Shown: in pieces, positions 11,509 through 28,309 of the stretch | Layout: each line of letters opens with the position of its first letter | Numbering within the stretch: position 1 is the first letter of the stretch | From: a virus | Taxonomy: Duplodnaviria; Caudoviricetes | Strand: one strand, 5' to 3' | DNA length: 49,461 nucleotides | Virus record (IMG/VR): IMGVR_UViG_3300037760_000064 | Span: 1-49,461 of that record | Position numbers and translations under genes: made by a program | Notes under the pieces: model-generated | Databases searched by the model: none | Seen by the model: only the letters and a program-made list of their open reading frames with translations | What the model was told of the DNA's origin: nothing

Positions 11509-11666
11509 GACAGCGCCTCCTTCACCGCGCGGATGTGCGCGCACGCGGCGTCGCCGGCCCAGCCGCACGTGCAGAACCGCTGGCCCGACTGGTCGAGTGC
11601 AACGCCGTCCTTGATGGCGCGCTCGTGTGGGATTCGACCGCCGGAGGGGTCGATGATCGTCAACAT
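11505..11666 (-). CDS. Small SWIM-like Zn-finger protein
   Basis: FCTC.....CAHI motif; TGATG coupling. Confidence 0.55.
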   Translation of the reverse strand: MLTIIDPSGGRIPHERAIKDGVALDQSGQRFCTCGWAGDAACAHIRAVKEALS

Positions 11667-12427
11667 CAGGCACCGACGGTGGTGCTGAGGGCCTGCATCT
11701 CGGAGTCGGTCACGTCTCGGGCGACGTGTCCGGTTAGTCGCGCGTGGTAGTCGAGGAGGTCGGAGAGGAATCCGACGAGCGCCAACGAGTCGGCGGTGTC
11801 GGCGTTGGCGGCGGCGTAGGCGTAGGCGGCGTAGGCGGCGGCGTTGGCGGCGGCGTAGGCGTAGGCGGCGTTGGCGGCGGCGTAGGCGTAGGCGTAGGCG
11901 GCGTCGGCGTAGGCGGCGTTGGCGGCGGCGTAGGCGTAGGCGGCGTAGGCGGCGGCGTAGGCGTAGGCGTAGGCGGCGTCGGCGTAGGCGGCGTTGGCGG
12001 CGGCGTAGGCGTAGGCGGCGTTGGCGGCGGCGTTGGCGTTCTTTTTGGTGGGCTCGTTCGCCCACATTTCGGCCGCATCAGTCGCAGCCACACAGGCCGC
12101 TCGGTCACCGGCGCGCAACAGATGCTCCACCCGACGGGCCGACCAAACCGCCAACCGCACACACAGAATCCGCCGGTCCAGCTGCGGTCGCATGTCGGCC
12201 GTGCCGAACAAGCGACCAATCAGCGGCACCAGCAGGTGCCGGTCCGCATCCGGCAAGGCGTCGTTGACCGTCCGCGCAGCACGAGCCAGCACCGGGTGTG
12301 TGCACGACGGGCTGTCGCCGAACTCCTCCCCGGCGAGCAGGGACACGTACTCCATCAGGCAGGCACCTTCGGACGGGTCCTCATGCGCGCCAGCGGACAG
12401 GATGGGGAGGAAATCGGGGACAGTCAT
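11666..12427 (-). CDS. Ala/Tyr low-complexity repeat protein with conserved N-terminal domain
   Basis: GAH....GACLMEYVSLLAGE.F.DSPSCTHPVL...VND domain, then a ~80-codon A/Y/N/D repeat tract; GAGAGGA RBS. Confidence 0.8.
   Translation of the reverse strand: MTVPDFLPILSAGAHEDPSEGACLMEYVSLLAGEEFGDSPSCTHPVLARAARTVNDALPDADRHLLVPLIGRLFGTADMRPQLDRRILCVRLAVWSARRVEHLLRAGDRAACVAATDAAEMWANEPTKKNANAAANAAYAYAAANAAYADAAYAYAYAAAYAAYAYAAANAAYADAAYAYAYAAANAAYAYAAANAAAYAAYAYAAANADTADSLALVGFLSDLLDYHARLTGHVARDVTDSEMQALSTTVGA
11801..12040. repeat. Low-complexity coding repeat built from GCC/TAC/AAC/GAC codons
   Basis: Tandem GGCGTA/GGCGTT/GGCGGC units with longer internal duplications. Confidence 0.95.
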
Positions 12428-12507
12428 TGGCGGGGTTCCTCTCGGGTAGGGGGCGGCCGGGGGGTTGACGTCCTTGACGGCGCGACCGCCGGAAGGGTCG
12501 GGGACCG

Positions 12508-12711
12508 TCAGCACGTCGCACCCCCGACCAGCCGGTAGTGCCGCCGCGTCCAGTCCCACGCCGAGGGCCAGTCCGGCTCCGTGTGGGAGGTGTGCCAATG
12601 CCCGCGGGTCGGGTCGAAGTCGTCGATCTCGATGCGCACAGCGCCGTGATCGGCAAAAATGTGGTAATGCGGGAGTGACGCGTGCTGGCTGTAATGGTCG
12701 GTCTGGATCAT
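12508..12711 (-). CDS. Hypothetical protein
   Basis: TAATG coupling to the Tas-like gene. Confidence 0.45.
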   Translation of the reverse strand: MIQTDHYSQHASLPHYHIFADHGAVRIEIDDFDPTRGHWHTSHTEPDWPSAWDWTRRHYRLVGGATC

Positions 12712-13913
12712 TACGACGGCTCCTCGTCATGTTCGGCGGCAGCAGCCCCGGCGCCACGTATGTGGGCGTCGGAAGGGCGTTGGCCGGGGCCGCTGCCTGT
12801 CCGGTGGACGCGCCGGGTCTCACGCCACAGCGCTTTCAGGACTTCCTTTGAGGTGATGCGCAGCGCGTCGGCGTGGCGGTGCCCGTCAGACCACGGCGTG
12901 CCGGGCTGGGCTGGCTTCCCGGATGGGCCGCAGCGCACGCACTCCACGTCGTGCATCCGGCCTTCGGTGGCTGCCTTGCGCTTGTCGTAGATTTCGCGGT
13001 TGCCGGCCTTGAGCATCGACTCGGCGATGTTGTAGGCGCGCATCTTCGCGGCGGTGGACCAGTTGGCCTGCTCGCCTCGTCGGCGCCTCTGTCCCGGCTT
13101 CAGCCCGCAATATCCCCACAGCTCTGACGGGGTTCGGGGTCGGTCGTGCAGGGTGTTCCAGTACGGGTCGCCGATCGCGGCCAGCAGCCGGGCTGCCTGC
13201 TTCTCCCCGACCCCGCGCTGCTCCTTCACCCACGCGCCGAGCGGGTGCTTCCGCATCGCCCGGTTCAGGTTCAGCGTCGCCTGGTGTTCCAGCTTCGCGA
13301 TCCCGTCGACGACACCGGCCAGGCGCGCCACGTCGGGGTGCGACTCGTCCAGCCCGAAGCCGCGCTGCCCGCCGTCCTTGTCCACCCCCGTGCGGGTCAG
13401 CTGACGCAGCCGGTTCTCGTTCGCGATGCGGGTACGTTCCAGGTCGTCGAGGACGTCGGCGAGCAGCGCGAGAGTGGGGTCCGCCAGCGGCTCGGTTATG
13501 GGCACCGTCCAGTCAGTGGCTGGCGGACCCCACGAGGGTGCGACAACGGCGAGATGGGAATGGGCATCGTGTGGTTTTTGGCCGTTGTCGCTGCTTGAGC
13601 CCCCGCCGACGCGGCGAAGATGGGCGTCGAACTCGGGATGGTCGGCGGGGATGTTTGGCGGCACCTGCGTAGCGACCATGGGTTGCGGCCGTGTCGTGGC
13701 GGGTGCCGTGTCTTGCCCCGCACCGACGACTGCTGAATGGGCGTCGTTCGTCATCTGGCCGGTGCGGGAGTTTGGACCTGCCGACGACGGCAGTTGTTCG
13801 GGCGACGCAGCATCGTTGGTCGCCGGCAGGTGGTCCGTACCCGCAGCGACGTAGGCCAGCTGGGTGTCGTGGTCAGCATGGTCGCTGCGGGTAGTCAGTG
13901 TTGGGCGGCTCAT
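12711..13913 (-). CDS. tasA: TasA-like protein: IS110-related coiled-coil + Nop RNA-binding domain, no nuclease domain. The ORF also spans the guide array.
   Basis: LADVLDDLERTRIANENRLRQL coiled coil; HPL..W....GVGEKQAARLLAAIGDP...SELWGYCGL...WS...K...Y.IAE...Y..RK...GHRH..A.R...K..L..LW. No DEDD RuvC, no HNH, no IS110 catalytic SG. TIGR-like units at both ends. The true start is uncertain (13913 or ~13505). Confidence 0.8.
   Translation of the reverse strand: MSRPTLTTRSDHADHDTQLAYVAAGTDHLPATNDAASPEQLPSSAGPNSRTGQMTNDAHSAVVGAGQDTAPATTRPQPMVATQVPPNIPADHPEFDAHLRRVGGGSSSDNGQKPHDAHSHLAVVAPSWGPPATDWTVPITEPLADPTLALLADVLDDLERTRIANENRLRQLTRTGVDKDGGQRGFGLDESHPDVARLAGVVDGIAKLEHQATLNLNRAMRKHPLGAWVKEQRGVGEKQAARLLAAIGDPYWNTLHDRPRTPSELWGYCGLKPGQRRRRGEQANWSTAAKMRAYNIAESMLKAGNREIYDKRKAATEGRMHDVECVRCGPSGKPAQPGTPWSDGHRHADALRITSKEVLKALWRETRRVHRTGSGPGQRPSDAHIRGAGAAAAEHDEEPS
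12738..12797 (-). ncRNA. Single downstream TIGR-like stem-loop guide unit (unit 8)
   Basis: ggcagcggccccgg CCA acgcccttc CG acgc CCA catacgtgg CG ccggggctgctgcc. Confidence 0.85.
13474..13893 (-). ncRNA. Stem-loop TIGR-like array, 7 dual-spacer guide units (period 58-62 nt)
   Basis: Every unit is a unique 10-15 bp stem closing CCA-N9-CG-NNNC-CCA-N9-CG (unit 2 has CCG at the second box). Units at 13838-13893, 13776-13831, 13717-13768, 13659-13708, 13601-13650, 13540-13591, 13474-13533. Confidence 0.88.
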
Positions 13914-14657: not shown

Positions 14658-14842
14658 GACCCACCCCCGATCAGCTGCGCCACATACCACGCCACCTGCG
14701 AACACACCAACACCACCGGCGCCACAAACAGCAGACCCAGCGCTAGGAACATCAGCGAGCAGCCACCACTCACCGGGAGGTTCTTCGGCCGCTGGTGGTA
14801 GTAGGGATTTCCTCCGGGGCTGCTGTAACGGGTGCGGGTCAT
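14654..14842 (-). CDS. Small membrane protein
   Basis: ATGA coupling; TM LMFLALGLLFVAPVVLV. Confidence 0.5.
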   Translation of the reverse strand: MTRTRYSSPGGNPYYHQRPKNLPVSGGCSLMFLALGLLFVAPVVLVCSQVAWYVAQLIGGGS

Positions 14843-15042
14843 GATCGAACTCCCCGCGGTGGCGTGTACGCAGGCAACGACCTCCACCAATCCATGAGGT
14901 CGTCATGGTCGATGCGGATATGCCGAGACCCGATCTTCCGCGCGAGCAGCCGCTCGTCCTTGATGGCCCGGTCAATGGTCTTCTCGCTGACCGAGACCTG
15001 TTCGGCGGCTTCGGTCTTGGTGTAGGCAATTTTGGCCATCAC
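14839..15042 (-). CDS. Excisionase (Xis)-family DNA-binding protein
   Basis: AYTKTEAAEQVSVSEKTIDRAIKDERLLARKIG...RI..DDL..W; third gene of the early operon. Confidence 0.85.
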   Translation of the reverse strand: MMAKIAYTKTEAAEQVSVSEKTIDRAIKDERLLARKIGSRHIRIDHDDLMDWWRSLPAYTPPRGVRS

Positions 15043-15284
15043 TCCCCCACCGCCTCGTAGTGCTCGGCGAACGTGATTGGGTCGACGGGGTACATCTCGC
15101 CGGTGCGCCGACGGACGATGAAATCTCCGATTGGCACGTCGGATGGGCCGCGAAGGGTTTGGATGACAAGGTCATCGCCGTTCTGCCAGATTGCCCCGGT
15201 TCTGCGCCACGATGCGGGGATTTCGTGGACCACCCCTTGCCATTCGACTGCGTCTATCTCGATAGGGCGGGATGCGTACCTCAT
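15039..15284 (-). CDS. Conserved small phage protein
   Basis: MRY.SRPIEIDAVEW...I.TLRG.....GDFIVR...GE.YPV.P..F...YE.V family pattern. Confidence 0.75.
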   Translation of the reverse strand: MRYASRPIEIDAVEWQGVVHEIPASWRRTGAIWQNGDDLVIQTLRGPSDVPIGDFIVRRRTGEMYPVDPITFAEHYEAVGE

Positions 15285-15532
15285 GACGCGTCCCGCTCGG
15301 TGTCGCGCTCGGATTCACCAAGCAGTTGCGGGAGTGGCACGCCGAGGCCCATGGCGATAAGCCCGAGCGTGGAACCACGGACAGCTCGGTGGCCATGTTC
15401 AACTCGGCGAAGGGTGAACAAGCTCACGGATGCGCGCTCGGCAAGGTCTTTCATCTTCATGCCCCGTGCCTCGCGGAGCCCGCGCACGATGCGCCCAATC
15501 TCTTCGGGTGCGGGGAGGGGAGATGTCTCCAT
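15281..15532 (-). CDS. cro: Cro-like XRE HTH protein
   Basis: IGRIVRGLREARGMKMKDLAERASVSLFTLRRVEHG; first gene of the leftward lytic operon, divergent from the repressor. Confidence 0.85.
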   Translation of the reverse strand: METSPLPAPEEIGRIVRGLREARGMKMKDLAERASVSLFTLRRVEHGHRAVRGSTLGLIAMGLGVPLPQLLGESERDTERDAS

Positions 15533-15535
15533 GCC

Positions 15536-15586
15536 GGAGACTCTAGGGCACTTTTAGAGTGTTATCAAGAGAGTTTAGGAGACTCT
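15536..15586 (-). promoter_or_regulatory. Leftward lytic promoter and operator repeats of the immunity switch
   Basis: Minus strand TTGATA (15563-68), 17 bp, TAGAGT (15540-45). GGAGACTCT repeated at 15536 and 15578, with inverted AGAGT half-sites. Confidence 0.7.
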
Positions 15587-15681
15587 TATTCGGCGTGTCG
15601 CCTGGACTGGAACCCCCAGGTCAGAGCGATTTATGCTCGCTCGGTCTTGTGTTTTCTCTCCTTTTCACTCATCCTTGGCCT

Positions 15682-16101
15682 GTGGCTGGCCGGAGCAAGT
15701 TGTCCGATAGGCAGCGCAAGCGGCTCGGCGAAATCATCGCCGAGCGCCGTAAGGAGCTTGGGCTGTGGCGGCAGCGCGACCTAGCTGACAGCGCAGGCGT
15801 GGGTATCGAGGTAGTGAATAATCTTGAGAACGGCCGGCGGTTCGCGAGCGATCGGAACATCTACCGGATCGAAGTGGCCCTCGACTGGAGCATCGGTGCC
15901 ATGGAGCGGATTGGCCGTGGCGGTGACCCCACCGACGAGGACATCCGTCCGAGCACCGACCAGCCAGTCCTCTACGACGAGATCGAGCGCAAGTTGTGGG
16001 TGCTCCCGCTGCCCGTGGCCGAGCGGCGGGGGATGATCGTGTTCTATCGCATGCAGCGTGAGCTAAACGAGGGCGGCGGCGACACCCAGGTGGTCAGCTG
16101 A
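15682..16101 (+). CDS. Immunity repressor (XRE HTH)
   Basis: RLGEIIAERRKELGL.RQRDLADSAGVG...VNNLENGR......IE.ALDW..G; divergent from cro. Start uncertain (GTG 15682 or TTG 15700). Confidence 0.85.
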   Translation: MAGRSKLSDRQRKRLGEIIAERRKELGLWRQRDLADSAGVGIEVVNNLENGRRFASDRNIYRIEVALDWSIGAMERIGRGGDPTDEDIRPSTDQPVLYDEIERKLWVLPLPVAERRGMIVFYRMQRELNEGGGDTQVVS

Positions 16102-16689: not shown

Positions 16690-16839
16690 TGCTGAGCTGA
16701 GCGAGCCGAACACCCCCAATATCCCGGATTTCTGGCGCTGAACGGGGCCCGCGATGCTGAGCGGATTCGCTCAGCATGCAGGTCAACGCCACAATCCGGT
16801 GCTGAGCGGCCACTTAGCACTCAGCTGGCCCGCTCAGCA
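16690..16839. repeat. Cluster of GCTGAGC(G) direct and inverted repeats downstream of traB
   Basis: Copies at ~16691, 16696, 16756 and 16801 (direct) and 16768 and 16831 (inverted), plus degenerate ones. Confidence 0.65.
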
Positions 16840-18896
16840 GAAACCATCGCCTCGAACTCGGTGTCGCGGGCATCCTCGTCACCATCTGCGTCAGTTGCGG
16901 ACACGTGCAACTGGCGCCGGGTCACCCCTTGTCCTGATGCCACCTCTCGTGGCTTGGCCGGATCCCAGACGACTCGCGGCTCGATGCCGATCTCGCGCAG
17001 CATCGCCCCCACCGACCGGGCGTTCAGCGCGCCGTAGGTTTGCTGACGCAGCGCGGCAAGTCCGTCAGCGAGGTCGGCTAGGTGGATAGCGTCGGCGTTG
17101 CCGATGACCTGACGACAGTCGGCCAGGAAGTCGACCTGTTGCAGCGTGTCGGTGATGTCCTCCCCGGCTGCGTAGCCCGTCAGCCGACCCTGCGCCTCAC
17201 GCACGGCGCGGGCACGTAGCGCGATCTTCTCCGACCGCACGCCATCGAGGCCGTAGACGGAACGCACAATTTGGGCCTCGGCGCCCTCCGCGCGTAGGTA
17301 GCCGAGCCCCTTGTCCTCATAGGCGAAGACGGTGGCGTCTATCCCCGAGTTGTACGCTCCGGTACCAAGGATGGAATCATTGGCCCCCCATCCCATGACC
17401 TTGAGGCAGAAACGGACCACGGCGTTCGCGGAGATAGCCGTCGGGATGCTGTTGGCGTCGGGCTTCTGGGTGCCGAAATAGGAGTGAATACCGACCGCCG
17501 GGCCACGTTTTACCAGGTCAGTGCAGATGTAGATGAACTCGTCACGGATCGTCTTACTGGAATGCTCCATCCAAACTTGCACCTCATCTGTCAATAGCAA
17601 TATGGGTCCAAGATTCAGTTGTCGCATATTCGCGATCTGATCATTGACCTTATTCTCCGGACATAGCGCACGATTCTCCTCAGCTATTTTCCGGATTACT
17701 TTGATACGGCGCCGCATCTCTTTGTGTAGGTCACGCATCTGGGCGAGCTGAGTTTCGATGTCCTCCGGCTCGTCACCGACGCCGTAGCCGTGCGCCACCA
17801 GCGACAGCGGCCCGAAGTCGCCGGTTCCCTTGAGGTCGTAAGCGTAGATGATCGTGCGCGGGTCCAGGGCGAATACCAGCCCGAGCTGCCGCATCACGAA
17901 TGTCTTGCCAGTCCTCGGAAGACCTCCGATCACCCCGGACGTATAGGCCAGAGTGAGCGCTACCCAGTGGCCGCGCTGGTCGGTGAACATCGGCACCGCG
18001 TCGAACACGTTGACCTGTCCCTTGCTCATGAGCGGCCAGGGCCGCTGCCGAGCGGTCGATACCGGCTCGTCAGCGACATACAGCTCCAAGTGCGCCTCAT
18101 GGCGCTTACCACGGGTGGGCCACACGGTGCCGAGCTCGCGGCGCAGCGCCGCGGACAACTGCGGCCGCTTCTCAATGACCTTGCCAGCTGTGACACCGGC
18201 CGGCAGTTCTAGTCCGACTTGGTACCCGCCAGTGGTGCGGGCGACGTCGTGCAGCAGACCGATCGACTCAGCATCTTTCATCCCGGCGATACCGAGAGTG
18301 CACAGCGCCTCGCGCACCATGGGCGCCGATACCGGCGGCGGCGCCCCATCGACCAGCGGTACCGCGTTCAGCAGCCGCTTGTCACGCGGCCGGCCGGCCC
18401 AGCCGAGTACCAGCAGTACCAGCACCGACACCGCCCAGAACAGCGCCGGCGATACCAAGAGCCAAACGATTGCGATACCGATACCGATCATGGCAATGAT
18501 GGCCCCAAAGGCGATCTGCCGGTTGCGGATCCGGTCCTTGCGGGCCTGTTCCAGTCGCAGCCACACCTCGGTCTCGCGCTGCCCGGCGTGGTGGCGTTGC
18601 AGCCCGCGGGTCTCCTCGTCGAGCATGGCCCGCCACAGCCACGCCACCGACCTGCCCACCCCACGTGGGCTCCACTTTAGTAAACGGGCCACATACACGG
18701 GCAGCCACAGCAGATGACGGACCAGAGTGTGCCGCCAGCGGCGGCTGGTCCTGCGGACGGTGGTGCCGAGCTCGCCGCCGCGCATCCAATCAGCCACCAG
18801 CGGTGGGTGGCTGGTATCGCTGGTATCGGTAGCGGGCATCGCGGCGGTATCGGTGGTGGTGTGGTTCTGGGCGTGGTCGGTGGTGCTGTTGGTCAC
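16821..18896 (-). CDS. traB: TraB-like FtsK/SpoIIIE conjugative DNA translocase
   Basis: Two N-terminal TM helices; Walker A GGLPRTGKT; YDLKGTGD; Walker B LLLTDEVQ; RGPAVGI...TQKP; C-terminal winged-helix-like region. GTG start coupled to the upstream stop. Confidence 0.88.
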   Translation of the reverse strand: MTNSTTDHAQNHTTTDTAAMPATDTSDTSHPPLVADWMRGGELGTTVRRTSRRWRHTLVRHLLWLPVYVARLLKWSPRGVGRSVAWLWRAMLDEETRGLQRHHAGQRETEVWLRLEQARKDRIRNRQIAFGAIIAMIGIGIAIVWLLVSPALFWAVSVLVLLVLGWAGRPRDKRLLNAVPLVDGAPPPVSAPMVREALCTLGIAGMKDAESIGLLHDVARTTGGYQVGLELPAGVTAGKVIEKRPQLSAALRRELGTVWPTRGKRHEAHLELYVADEPVSTARQRPWPLMSKGQVNVFDAVPMFTDQRGHWVALTLAYTSGVIGGLPRTGKTFVMRQLGLVFALDPRTIIYAYDLKGTGDFGPLSLVAHGYGVGDEPEDIETQLAQMRDLHKEMRRRIKVIRKIAEENRALCPENKVNDQIANMRQLNLGPILLLTDEVQVWMEHSSKTIRDEFIYICTDLVKRGPAVGIHSYFGTQKPDANSIPTAISANAVVRFCLKVMGWGANDSILGTGAYNSGIDATVFAYEDKGLGYLRAEGAEAQIVRSVYGLDGVRSEKIALRARAVREAQGRLTGYAAGEDITDTLQQVDFLADCRQVIGNADAIHLADLADGLAALRQQTYGALNARSVGAMLREIGIEPRVVWDPAKPREVASGQGVTRRQLHVSATDADGDEDARDTEFEAMVSAERAS

Positions 18897-19645
18897 GCCG
18901 CCGACTCCTGGGCCGATCGCGAGCCGTTGGCGGACGGCTGGTAGTGCCCGTTGAGTACCAACCTCCGCAGCTGTATCGCCGTGCTCTTCGAGACGCTCAA
19001 GGCGGATACCAGTCGAGTCGACGACATGTCTTGCAGACCGCGCTCGTAGACGGTCCCCAGCAGGGCGAGGACGTGGGGGCTCGGGGGCCGGCTCGCCGAT
19101 GCGGCAGCGGTCGCAACGCCTACCGGTACCGGCGGTGGTGGCGGGGCGGAGATGGCCGGCGAGTCCGCAGAGGAGCATGGCTGGGAACCTGCCGCGTGGC
19201 GGTCGCTGGTACTGCTCCATGGCGCATCCCTGGTGATGATGTGGACGACGAGGCCGACTGTGATCGCCGGTACCGACCCGACCGCGGTCACCACGACCCA
19301 GCCCGGCACCAACAGCCCGGTACTGATCAGGTGCGATACCGCGTTCCCCGCCACCGACGCGGCGATGGCACCCACCGATACCGACGCGGCGGTGCGGGAC
19401 CGTGACCTGCGGTACTCAGTGAGAGCAGCGGCGGCCAGGGCGTCGATGGACAGGGGTAGCAGCGGCGACGTCCACACCGGCCAACCAGCATGTATCGCCA
19501 GGTCGCGGAGGAAGACGAAGCTGGCGAGTACCGCCGCTGTGGCCGATACCGCGATGAGGACTCGACGCCACCAGATGATCACAAGACGGTACTGTACCAG
19601 CAATACCAGTGATACTAGTATCGAAAGGGTTGAGATGAAGAGCAA
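18893..19645 (-). CDS. DUF2637/SpdA-like multi-pass membrane protein with C-terminal HTH (plasmid/AICE spread protein)
   Basis: AAVLASF..LRDLA...GW.....LLPLSID...SVAGN..H...V..VP; Pro-rich linker; STRLVSALSVSKSTA HTH-like end. Confidence 0.75.
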   Translation of the reverse strand: MLFISTLSILVSLVLLVQYRLVIIWWRRVLIAVSATAAVLASFVFLRDLAIHAGWPVWTSPLLPLSIDALAAAALTEYRRSRSRTAASVSVGAIAASVAGNAVSHLISTGLLVPGWVVVTAVGSVPAITVGLVVHIITRDAPWSSTSDRHAAGSQPCSSADSPAISAPPPPPVPVGVATAAASASRPPSPHVLALLGTVYERGLQDMSSTRLVSALSVSKSTAIQLRRLVLNGHYQPSANGSRSAQESAA

Positions 19646-19649
19646 GTAG

Positions 19650-19880
19650 CTAGGAAACTCGGAATGTGCCCCTCACCGGGAACGTCTCGACACGGTGCTC
19701 CTCGCGCAACAACTGGAGCGCCGCGCGAACGGTGTTTCGACCGACGTCATACCCGGCTTCAAGTTCGCCTTCGGATGGCAACTTCTCACCGATCGCGATC
19801 TCGTTCGCATCGAACTTCGCGCGCAGTACCGCAGCGAGCTGCCGATAGAACGGCTCACGGCTCCACTTGTCGATACTCAC
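19650..19880 (-). CDS. GntR-family winged-helix regulator (Kor-like)
   Basis: PFYRQLAAVLR......GEKLPSEGEL...YDVGRNTVRAALQLL..E..V.T...RGTF. Confidence 0.9.
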   Translation of the reverse strand: MSIDKWSREPFYRQLAAVLRAKFDANEIAIGEKLPSEGELEAGYDVGRNTVRAALQLLREEHRVETFPVRGTFRVS

Positions 19881-20151
19881 GCCGATATCATACGGGACCA
19901 CCCGTACCACTAGTACCGATACCGATCTCGACAACATCGGTCAGGCGCTATGTTCCGACATGGGCAGTCTCAGCAACGATGAGCGCCGAGCCGTGGTGGT
20001 TGTCCTTGGAGAGTCGGCGCCGGACGAGTTGCACGCGTTCACGATGGCGCTGGCTATTACGGCTCGACATTGCCCAGAGCACTTCCACCTCTGGGATGAC
20101 GAGGTAGAAGAAATCATGGGCGGAGAGCTTCCCTGGGAACGGGAATCGTAG
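19867..20151 (+). CDS. Hypothetical protein (start probably internal, e.g. ATG 19960)
   Basis: ORF divergent from gntR; C..H motif, acidic C-terminus. Confidence 0.35.
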   Translation: MSILTPISYGTTRTTSTDTDLDNIGQALCSDMGSLSNDERRAVVVVLGESAPDELHAFTMALAITARHCPEHFHLWDDEVEEIMGGELPWERES

Positions 20152-25976: not shown

Positions 25977-27695
25977 ATGACGATGACTGTGTACCGGTAC
26001 GGGCTGCCCTCCTGGGTGGTCCTGCCGCAGGTCGTAGACGAGCAGCTGTGGCTGGCGCACCAGCTGCGTAACCAGCTGGTGCAGCTGGAACACGAGCATG
26101 AGGAGCAGCTGGCCGCACTCATGTCGTCGTACCCTCAGGTCGCGGAGGCGGAGCAAGCCCGGGAAGCGATAGCTGCCCGGACCGCCGAACTGGAAACCAA
26201 GGTGGCCCAGGAGCGGGCGCGGCAACGGACCCGCTCACCGAAACATCCCGCTGTGCGTGAGCTCGCAGAGACTCGAGCACAGCTGAAAGCGGCCCGCGTC
26301 GATGTGCGCGACCGCAAGGCGGCAGTCCGGGACGCCTCCGCCGGGGCCAAGAAGGATCTGCGTGACCAGCTGAAACAGCGCCAGAAAGAGCTGTACGGCG
26401 AATACTGCCAGACACGTGGACTGTACTGGGCCGTCTACAACGATGTCGCAGATCACCATCGCGTCGCGGCGAGACGTGTGGTGGCGAAACGCTCAGCTGG
26501 GCAGCCCGCCCAGCTGCGATATCACCGGTGGGACGGGTCGGGATCGCTAGCCGTACAGCTGCAGCGGGCCCAGACGGACCCGCAGCGCACCCCCGACCGT
26601 ATCGCCGACGGCGAGCACGGCAAGTGGCGCAACGTCCTATCGATCTCGCAGGGCACCCGCCACGGACAGCTGCGTATGCGGGTCGGTGCCGAACATGTCA
26701 CACTGCCGATAATCGTCGACCACGACATGGACGACGACGCGGACATCACAGGCGCACGCCTCACAGTCAGACGAGTCGCCGGGCAGCGGCGCGTACACCT
26801 GACAGTCGCCGCCAAGCTCCCCGACCCGGCACCAGTCACCAGCGGCGCCACCTTGGCTGTGCACTGTGGCTGGAGGCGTGAGGACGACGACTCTATCCGC
26901 GTCGCCACCTGGAGAGCAGGACAACCAGTCACAGTGCCGGTCGACCTCAAAGACATCGTCACCCAGGACACATCCACCAGCGGGATCGTCACGATGCCGG
27001 TGGCGTGGCGGGACCGCATCGCCCACTACACCACCGTGCAAGCCAGCCGTGACACCCGGCTAGAGCAGATACGAGATCGCGTCGTCCAGTGGCTCACGAC
27101 ACACCCACAGGACGACATCGACCCTGCCAGCGTGGCTAAATGGCGCAGCCCAACGCGGCTGGCGAAACTGGCATGGCAGTGGCACCACGACACTCCCGCA
27201 GGTGGGGACCAGATCACACGAGAGCTGATGTCATGGCGCCGCTGGGACCGGGTCAGGTGGGAGCAGGCAGCGCACGGCACCCAGAGGGCGACCGGCCGGC
27301 GTGACGACGCGTGGCGCCGGTTCGCCGCCTGGGTAGCGTCCACAGCAGTCGTGGTGGTGGTGGACGACACAGACCTGGCCGCACTGACCAGACAGATCAC
27401 CCAGGAGCCGACCACGATCCCCACCCAGGTCACACAGATCGCCGCGCGGCAACGCGTCGACGCTGCTCCTGGTGGTCTACGCCAGGCGGTGCGATCTGCC
27501 GCCACCCGTGACGGAGTCACGGTCGTAACGGTCCCGTCGAAAGGCCTATCGGGCGACTGCTATCGCTGCGGGCACAGCGGCAACGACGTCACCGGCCACG
27601 TGATCTACTGCGACAGCTGCGACAAGCCCTACGACCGTGACGCATCCGCGACACTACACATGATCCGACGTGCGAGCGGTCACTTGACCACTTGA
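25977..27695 (+). CDS. cas12m: Cas12m (type V-M, formerly V-U1) CRISPR effector with non-canonical RuvC
   Basis: 572 aa. QLWLAHQLR, LYGEYC...LYWA.YN.V..HH, RWDGSGSLAVQLQR and DADITGA motifs as recalled for Cas12m. RuvC-I LAVHCGWR (H for D), RuvC-II VVDDTD (D for E), AAPGGLR, Zn finger CYRC/CDSC, RuvC-III YDRD. Adjacent CRISPR array. Confidence 0.92.
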   Translation: MTMTVYRYGLPSWVVLPQVVDEQLWLAHQLRNQLVQLEHEHEEQLAALMSSYPQVAEAEQAREAIAARTAELETKVAQERARQRTRSPKHPAVRELAETRAQLKAARVDVRDRKAAVRDASAGAKKDLRDQLKQRQKELYGEYCQTRGLYWAVYNDVADHHRVAARRVVAKRSAGQPAQLRYHRWDGSGSLAVQLQRAQTDPQRTPDRIADGEHGKWRNVLSISQGTRHGQLRMRVGAEHVTLPIIVDHDMDDDADITGARLTVRRVAGQRRVHLTVAAKLPDPAPVTSGATLAVHCGWRREDDDSIRVATWRAGQPVTVPVDLKDIVTQDTSTSGIVTMPVAWRDRIAHYTTVQASRDTRLEQIRDRVVQWLTTHPQDDIDPASVAKWRSPTRLAKLAWQWHHDTPAGGDQITRELMSWRRWDRVRWEQAAHGTQRATGRRDDAWRRFAAWVASTAVVVVVDDTDLAALTRQITQEPTTIPTQVTQIAARQRVDAAPGGLRQAVRSAATRDGVTVVTVPSKGLSGDCYRCGHSGNDVTGHVIYCDSCDKPYDRDASATLHMIRRASGHLTT

Positions 27696-27720
27696 CACCT
27701 AGCGAGCGCTCGCACACACT
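27692..27720 (+). promoter_or_regulatory. Possible CRISPR leader promoter
   Basis: TTGACA (27692-97), 17 bp, CACACT; palindrome GCGAGCGCTCGC in the spacer region. Confidence 0.4.
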
Positions 27721-27849
27721 GCAACCCAGGCCATAGGGCCCACGCACCTTGACATCACCCATCCAGTCTGTCCCGGAACGGACAGACACAACCACCACTC
27801 GCGACAGACCAAAACGTCGCAGGTCAGCACCACCCACAACGACACAGCG

Positions 27850-28253
27850 GTGTCCATGCCAGCGTTGGGGCTTCGTACCAGCGAGACCTCGCCACCGCCT
27901 CGTACAGGCGGTGGAAGATGTGTGTCCATGCCAGCGTTGGGGCTTCGTACCAGCGAGCGTCAAGACTCATGATCTTGTTCCTTTCGTTTAGACCTTGTGT
28001 CCATGCCAGCGTTGGGGCTTCGTACCAGCGAGACATGGACATCGAGAACAGCACCCAGATGAATTGGGTGTCCATGCCAGCGTTGGGGCTTCGTACCAGC
28101 GAGACAGATCGCTTCGACCGCGAGGTCGACCCCGAGTTCAAGGTGTCCATGCCAGCGTTGGGGCTTCGTACCAGCGAGTAGCGTCGTCGGTGCCGTCCCG
28201 CCGCCATGCCTCGGCCGGTGTCCATGCCAGCGTTGGGGCTTCGTACCAGCGAG
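27850..28253 (+). CRISPR. CRISPR mini-array: 6 identical 36-bp repeats, 5 spacers (36, 39, 35, 39, 39 bp)
   Basis: Repeat GTGTCCATGCCAGCGTTGGGGCTTCGTACCAGCGAG at 27850, 27922, 27997, 28068, 28143 and 28218; internal stem CGTTGG/CCAGCG. Confidence 0.99.
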
Positions 28254-28264
28254 GTAGAAATTCG

Positions 28265-28287
28265 CCCCCACCCGTGACGGGTGGGGG
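28265..28287. terminator. Hairpin between the array and the convergent tail operon
   Basis: CCCCCACCCG-tga-CGGGTGGGGG, perfect 10-bp stem. Confidence 0.75.
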
Positions 28288-28309
28288 TGTCGGCTGTGAT
28301 GCGCTGGGG

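Follow-up and report, generated by a model that had tools for sequence, protein, structure and literature searches.

The window analysed here is the whole virus record IMGVR_UViG_3300037760_000064, a stretch of 49,461 bases of the linear class with an estimated completeness of 70% and a G+C content of 65.8%. Its gene content was read from 40 ORFs scanned out of the 340 listed. Among these 40 are structural genes (terminase, portal, protease, capsid, tape measure, tail, and endolysin) and genes for a tyrosine integrase, repressor-like and Cro-like HTH regulators, an excisionase, RecE/RecT, a replication initiator, and DnaB. The window is a temperate tailed phage. The G+C content, together with the solved Cas12m proteins that lie closest to its own, points to a probable actinobacterial host. 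Between the repressor and the integrase lies a gene for a 799-residue FtsK/SpoIIIE-like protein (phrog_1358) at 16821-19220. It adjoins a small HTH gene (19650-19937) which I take, by eye, to be GntR-like, and the two genes are possibly the cargo of an integrative element. Low-complexity tandem repeats were seen at 11800-12040 within the gene 11666-12823, whose neighbour (12711-13913) matches phrog_4285 (label: transposase).

The plus strand carries a cas12m gene at 25977-27695. Using phmmer, it was found that its 572-residue product is homologous over the full length to GoCas12m (8pm4, E 6e-119) and MmCas12m2 (8hio, E 1e-112). The protein has a C-terminal zinc-ribbon (TNB) domain (PF07282) and 42 relatives of 26-61% identity, and no close relative was found in viral contigs or phage records. 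As read from the alignment, the RuvC triad is H296-D463-D555 (H-D-D), with D463 aligned to D485 of MmCas12m2. The triad types reported among Cas12m proteins are D-E-D, H-D-D, and N-D-D (PMC11013384), and the H-D-D type is described as non-cutting (PMC10442227; PMC11013384). Judged by these sequence features, the effector is an H-D-D Cas12m of CRISPR-Cas type V-M. All five TTN-reading residues of MmCas12m2 (Y141, W152, N156, Q195, and Q197) are kept as Y140, W151, N155, Q194, and Q196. The Arg-rich pocket for the non-target strand (R111, R112, R126, and R173) is occupied here by V110, R111, K125, and R172, that is, by two Arg, one Lys, and one Val residue.

MmCas12m2 (PDB 8HIO) is reported to use a TTN PAM and a 17-bp duplex (PMC10442227). 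Guides of about 17 nt and the PAMs YTN, YTTS, and TTV are described for Cas12m proteins in another report, in which PmCas12m reads YTN and single mismatches within 12 nt abolish its activity in a human-cell reporter (10.64898/2026.03.26.714355). GoCas12m is reported to block transcription in promoter and coding regions and to protect against phage (PMC11013384). By analogy with these characterised proteins, the phage Cas12m would use a TTN (or YTN) PAM and a guide of about 17 nt, would bind DNA without cutting it, and would lose activity with PAM-proximal mismatches.

The CRISPR array starts 154 bases downstream of cas12m. A repeat search revealed six identical 36-nt repeats (starting at 27850, 27922, 27997, 28068, 28143, and 28218) and five spacers of 36, 39, 35, 39, and 39 nt at 27850-28253 on the plus strand. 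The interval between cas12m and the first repeat (27696-27849) is, by its position, the putative leader, in which no sigma-70 consensus promoter passed the scan. No cas1 or cas2 gene was found among the 40 ORFs scanned out of 340 listed, in a record that may be incomplete; V-M systems are reported to be usually devoid of both (PMC10691335). The repeat has a predicted stem at positions 14-19/29-34, placed like the pseudoknot stem of Cas12m2 (PMC10442227). This placement supports the plus strand as the crRNA strand and spacer 1 (27886-27921) as the leader-proximal spacer. Spacer 1 is thus likely to be the newest of the array, with a guide predicted to comprise its first 17 nt (27886-27902). Following the last repeat, folding of 28218-28300 gave a 12-bp GC-rich hairpin without a U tract at 28263-28289. 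Flanked by the array on one side and the convergent tail genes on the other, it was missed by the terminator scan; it is a possible two-way terminator.

No related array that could supply spacer variants was found. Three of the five spacers start with AC. Spacer 3 has a predicted 9-bp stem (27997-28044) between its opening 10 nt and the first 9 nt of its own repeat; such a stem could hinder processing or targeting. An 11.3-kb contig of run X1 (depth 22.7), aligned to window positions 27847-28216, joins the leader and the trailer via a single repeat and skips all five spacers. Either a variant without the array truly exists, or the assembly collapsed at the repeat. Spacer 3 and its repeats (27997-28106) are unchanged in contigs of runs X2 and X3 (2020 and 2025); spacers 1, 2, and 4 were unseen in these contigs, gaps that prove nothing. 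Low-depth contigs of runs X1 and X2 match spacer 5 (28182-28215) at 30/34 positions, with foreign flanks and the first three bases unmatched. These are either a distant target or chance matches.

Origin of spacer 1

Spacer 1 resembles the end of a resident gene of the phage (15039-15284, minus strand), which encodes 81 residues and has no assigned function. Upstream of it lies a Cro-like HTH regulator gene (15281-15532, minus strand), and its end is overlapped by an excisionase-like HTH_17 gene (14839-15042, minus strand), both recognised by domain scan. A repressor-like HTH gene (15559-16101, plus strand) is divergent from the Cro-like gene. The whole resident protein matches the profiles phrog_419 and phrog_1810 (E 6.5e-13 and 3.4e-12) and carries the family end motif G-E-x-Y-P...F...Y-E. 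It is a diverged member, with best relatives 42-49% identical; at E 0.001, 796 cluster representatives are related to it. The family is called PGDYG-like here, after labels in the records and a lead from the Atlas (0.88, 26% of members). No Pfam family was matched at E 0.01, thus no PF14083 (PGDYG), and no literature on 'PGDYG' was found. The protein is confidently modelled (pLDDT 95) as small and beta-rich, and Foldseek gave no match to this model in the PDB.

Two different queries against 50,697 phage records found the PGDYG-like family in 449 and 882 of them, in many host groups. Its gene contexts vary: beside replication genes, in right-arm gene strings, in a MazG-like fusion, and upstream of a capsid-like gene. 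Some members occur in genes annotated MazG-like or nicotinate ribosyltransferase. An alignment was made of 146 of the 149 listed relatives, leaving out three longer than 400 residues. The family end motif is D-I-F-x-x-T-Y-E-x-V, with D70 in 92 of the 146 members, I71 in 108, F72 in 139, T75 in 93, Y76 in 139, E77 in 105, and V79 in 77. The resident reads I-T-F where the family has D-I-F.

At the DNA level, spacer 1 aligns without gaps to 15041-15076 (plus strand) at 23/36 nt, including a run of 13 nt, and this is the best site of the window on both measures. The site overlaps the stop codon of the resident gene and the start of the excisionase gene, and its 5′ flank is ATC (15038-15040). On the reverse strand, spacer 1 reads IFHRLYEAVAR and the resident TFAEHYEAVGE-stop. 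The sequence-only reading had described the alignment with its 13-nt run, the ATC flank, the two reverse-strand readings, and a 9-bp hairpin in the spacer, and all of them were confirmed upon re-measurement. When 1000 dinucleotide shuffles of spacer 1 were compared with the window, 23/36 was reached by 26.3% and a 13-nt run by 10.7%. Both occurred at one site in 0.4% (4/1000), a joint criterion that was picked post hoc with five spacers in play. The best window matches of spacers 2-5 are 22/39, 22/35, 24/39, and 25/39, with runs of 9-12 nt. The DNA match of spacer 1 to the resident site is, by itself, weak.

Is spacer 1 related to the family rather than to this one gene? Its coding strand reads xAC (Asp possible) followed by I-F-H-R-L-Y-E-A-V-A-R, which is the C-terminal motif of the family in register. 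Against a family profile built without the resident, spacer 1 scores 21.0 bits, which lies at the 10th percentile of family members and is reached by none of 97,654 control 36-mers of the window. In columns 70-75, outside the 13-nt run, its score is reached by 17 of the 97,654 controls. The columns that differ between the spacer and the resident sum to only 1.3 bits (P 0.03), because the H-R-L triplet is atypical: it occurs in none of the 146 members, L75 occurs in one, and an equally rare triplet in five.

For comparison of nucleotides, 15 GC-rich family loci were picked by hand and fetched, namely 14 named phage records and the metagenome locus L006. The motif was located in 13 of these genes, which are mutually related. 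In 9 of the 13 (two of the nine tied), the best ungapped match of spacer 1 among about 2,200 positions each is the homologous register. The genes of Tortellini and Cabrinians agree with spacer 1 at 25/36 positions, above the 23/36 of the resident. TTN is found at the homologous register in none of the 13 genes, and CTC in one. The Tortellini gene (L003:1480-1773), from an unrelated mycobacteriophage, shares a 16-nt run with the spacer and has the CTC flank, thus matching better than the resident. The coding-strand bases 1-8 of spacer 1 are 92% identical to the 13 genes (8/8 in eight of them), bases 9-16 only 13%, bases 17-29 75%, and bases 30-36 29%. Family members share 40-71% among themselves in bases 9-16. 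The part encoding D-I-F is thus nearer to ordinary family members (92%) than to the resident (5/8).

When 23 reading frames of the spacer were scanned against PHROGs without regard to the family, the relevant frame of 23 residues had no match. A rough count of about 15,000 codons and 30 spacer frames, set against 2^-21, allows at most about 0.2 matches by chance, and the case therefore draws in part on the prior expectation that the targets of phage spacers are phages. With the profile score and the register taken into account, spacer 1 very likely derives from the 3′ end of a PGDYG-like family gene. This agrees with the sequence-only reading in that the source would be a homologue of the resident gene. 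That reading had further placed the source in the early operon of a related phage; since the family is common and its contexts are varied, these two points are guesses.

The protospacer itself was sought in several collections. The sequence-only reading had proposed a BLASTn-type check of spacer 1. When spacer 1 and the array were compared by blastn with 50,697 phage records, and the array with 72,556 plasmids, the best E values were 0.1-5 without a convincing protospacer, and so no PAM was seen. Exact 21-mers of spacer 1 had no matches in viral and metagenome contigs. Two matches in genome contigs (24/36 and 26/36) lie in proteobacterial and myxobacterial genes outside the family and were regarded as chance. 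An exact 18-mer in the guide part led to five viral loci (two variants of one region) at 23-25/36, which were discarded because they have a CCG flank and no family gene. A peptide pattern allowing resident or spacer residues gave 27 viral candidates, none of them a family member, and 19 metagenome candidates, of which one (L006) is a member with only 17/36. A word search of 5.8 billion proteins with a two-row alignment (lengths 6-142) returned the resident only. Spacer 1 had no counterpart in the contigs of four runs, searched at 85% and 80%, a result that does not prove its absence there. The FtsK-like gene is matched by spacer 4 (24/39) and by spacer 5 (15 of the first 17 nucleotides, with a GGA flank); both matches were set aside as chance, as was a likeness of spacer 1 to the 3′ half of the repeat (11/14 bases by eye), here by a rough estimate.

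The hairpin in spacer 1

A perfect 9-bp inverted repeat lies inside spacer 1 at 27892-27914 on the plus strand (arms 27892-27900 and 27906-27914). The predicted hairpin has -17.8 kcal/mol on the crRNA strand (z -3.4, 0/200 shuffles). The coding strand forms 14 pairs including G-U at -21.7 kcal/mol (z -4.9). The other four spacers fold with z between -1.5 and +0.5. It was found that a 9-bp repeat arises in 2/6000 back-translated family ends and in 97/4000 recodings of the spacer's own peptide. The family motif does not account for the hairpin. One of the hairpin arms is exactly the 8-nt block (27906-27913) which departs from the family (13%), corresponds to coding bases 9-16, and encodes H-R-L.

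An alternative origin has to be weighed here. Spacer 1 may have come from an unrelated hairpin of some element, such as a terminator, an operator, or a processing site, the PGDYG-like likeness being chance. The near-complete span of the hairpin over one strand of the spacer (14 pairs, z -4.9) would suit such a source, as would the rarity of such hairpins in back-translated family sequence (2/6000), the occurrence of H-R-L in 0/146 members, the PHROGs scan without a match for the frame, and the collections searched without a target. However, the spacer agrees with the family, correctly spaced, on either side of the odd block (92% and 75%), the profile score is unmatched in 97,654 controls, and the register test gave 9/13. 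I consider this origin unlikely.

If the family origin is right, how did the odd arm arise? The changes cluster in only one of the two arms of the perfect inverted repeat, which suggests a template switch in which one arm served as the template for the other; this is a possibility of nearly even odds. Template switching in inverted repeats is reported to cluster changes in one arm (PMC8604942). The present case resembles the homogenisation described there in that the clustered changes spare the other arm of a perfect inverted repeat and replace neighbouring amino acids. It differs from that yeast coding DNA, for which ancestral states are known: no ancestor is available here, and the event may have taken place in the target or in the array. 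Slightly less plausible is that the hairpin was selected in the target mRNA over the ribosome-binding site of the next gene, a reading favoured by the extra G-U pairs on the coding strand. The coding-strand 3′ end of spacer 1 is purine-rich and ribosome-binding-like. An arm made by chance is doubtful. Among the papers listed by a literature search, no title or abstract opening deals with template switching in CRISPR spacers. If spacers or targets are rewritten by template switching, the targets would be hidden from exact-match searches.

Does the hairpin silence the guide? The odd arm occupies guide positions 21-28. The hairpin needs a guide of at least 24 nt; guides of up to 23 nt gave no fold. 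Thus, the suggestion of the sequence-only reading that the hairpin may impair the guide is weakened, as mature Cas12m guides are about 17 nt in length. The hairpin lies mostly in the trimmed tail, so the guide probably works, and the hairpin would matter only if it blocks crRNA trimming. Spacer 1 may still be of the family and guide 1 dead or weak, if the hairpin blocks 3′ trimming and pairs guide positions 7-15, giving no protection. The energy of -17.8 kcal/mol is beyond the range of -5 to -11 advised for Cas12a spacers in a report in which the strongest folds brought no benefit (PMC7102956), and the efficiency of PmCas12m is reported to drop with spacers longer than 20 nt (10.64898/2026.03.26.714355). 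On the other side stand the lack of a fold at 23 nt or less, the total length of mature Cas12m crRNAs, reported as about 50-60 nt (PMC11013384; 10.64898/2026.03.26.714355), and the report that moderate back-folding of tails is harmless to Cas12a (PMC7102956). A dead or weak guide is improbable.

More improbable still is that a template switch in the array itself rewrote the tail of spacer 1 into a back-folding arm, left the 17-nt guide intact, and was kept for discrimination between self and rival. The hairpin would then raise the bar for DNA invasion by a guide which nearly matches the phage's own early operon. Hairpin-extended guides can raise the specificity of Cas9. Such guides have also been described for Cas13a (PMC7967054).

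Guide 1 and the resident site

At the resident site, 14/17 and 16/20 of the first nucleotides of spacer 1 are matched, with mismatches at guide positions 3, 4, and 6. Two other sites of the window match the guide at 14/17 as well, and spacer 5 matches elsewhere at 15/17. No TTN-flanked self site better than 12/17 was found for any spacer. The resident site is probably spared from the phage's own guide because of the ATC flank and the mismatches at guide positions 3, 4, and 6. The claim of the sequence-only reading that self is spared thus gains probable support: the effector has the TTN-reading residues, while the site has no TTN and three PAM-proximal mismatches. The resident site may serve as a small example of self-avoidance by PAM and seed.

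It is very unlikely that guide 1 is instead a self-regulator, through which Cas12m would bind the resident site at the excisionase junction, damp the early lytic operon, and stabilise lysogeny. The agreement of 14/17 and 16/20 and the location between the Cro-like and the excisionase-like genes would be in keeping with this, partly complementary regulatory guides are known (10.1101/2023.03.03.530964), and self-binding would be non-lethal with a Cas12m that does not cut. Yet regulatory guides are expected to have a valid PAM and matched PAM-proximal bases, whereas the resident site shows ATC, which is neither TTN nor YTN, and mismatches 3, 4, and 6, positions at which PmCas12m is reported to tolerate none (10.64898/2026.03.26.714355). 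In addition, matches of 14/17 at two other sites of the window and of 15/17 for spacer 5 elsewhere speak against regulation, and the PAM-distal end of spacer 1 fits foreign family members better than the resident. That spacer 1 stems from an earlier version of the phage's own gene, which later escaped by mutation, is hardly credible. In its favour, the spacer is closer to the family consensus, as an ancestor might be, and four third codon positions are identical within the 13-nt run. But 13/36 bases differ, most of them outside the guide where escape would be needless, and a leader-proximal spacer is expected to be recent. Moreover, common descent is not required to explain the run, as a run of 16 nt is shared with the unrelated mycobacteriophage gene.

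Predicted action of the phage system and its relatives

The reading which I regard as likely is that this phage uses Cas12m and a spacer from the last codons of another phage's PGDYG-like gene, so that the rival is bound and its transcription blocked while the phage's own diverged copy is spared. The phage would transcribe the array, and Cas12m would process the transcript and load guide 1. The complex would bind the TTN-flanked gene end in an incoming phage and block RNA polymerase, as GoCas12m does. Should the target gene have the same end as the resident gene, the middle T of the PAM would come from the target's stop codon. Genes lying behind the target may be silenced by a roadblock at its end, and with such a polar block the small gene itself could be dispensable. 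The source of the spacer may co-infect the same host, and the spacer may have been supplied by Cas1-Cas2 of the host.

The system resembles those of MmCas12m2 (PDB 8HIO, PMC10442227) and GoCas12m (PDB 8PM4, PMC11013384) in the H-D-D triad, the TTN-reading residues, the 36-nt repeat with a matching stem, and the array directly downstream of the effector without cas1/cas2. It differs from them in that it is carried by a temperate phage and has one Val and one Lys in the Arg pocket. The genome of the myxophage MV-1 (bioRxiv 10.64898/2026.09.14.751636) is likewise reported to carry a Cas12m and a short array and to lack adaptation genes. In contrast to the present phage, with its H-D-D triad and one spacer assignable to a phage gene family, MV-1 has a D-E-D triad, and no spacer target is identified in that report. 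Thus, a phage Cas12m spacer is here tied to a common phage gene family, whereas the published phage-borne Cas12m of MV-1 comes without identified targets.

Mini-arrays of phages are reported to target mostly related viruses, while V-M systems are enriched in plasmids, occur in some prophages, and are discussed mainly as inter-plasmid weapons (PMC11656645). As with the virus-borne mini-arrays of that report, a spacer appears to point at another virus that shares genes with its carrier. Those mini-arrays have one or two spacers and use a host effector; the phage studied here brings an effector of its own along with five spacers, and the kinship of its target is a guess. The overall kind of conflict, phage against phage via CRISPR, is already known. 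The case of spacer 1 suggests that orphan spacers may be assigned by translation against protein-family profiles when the databases hold no protospacer.
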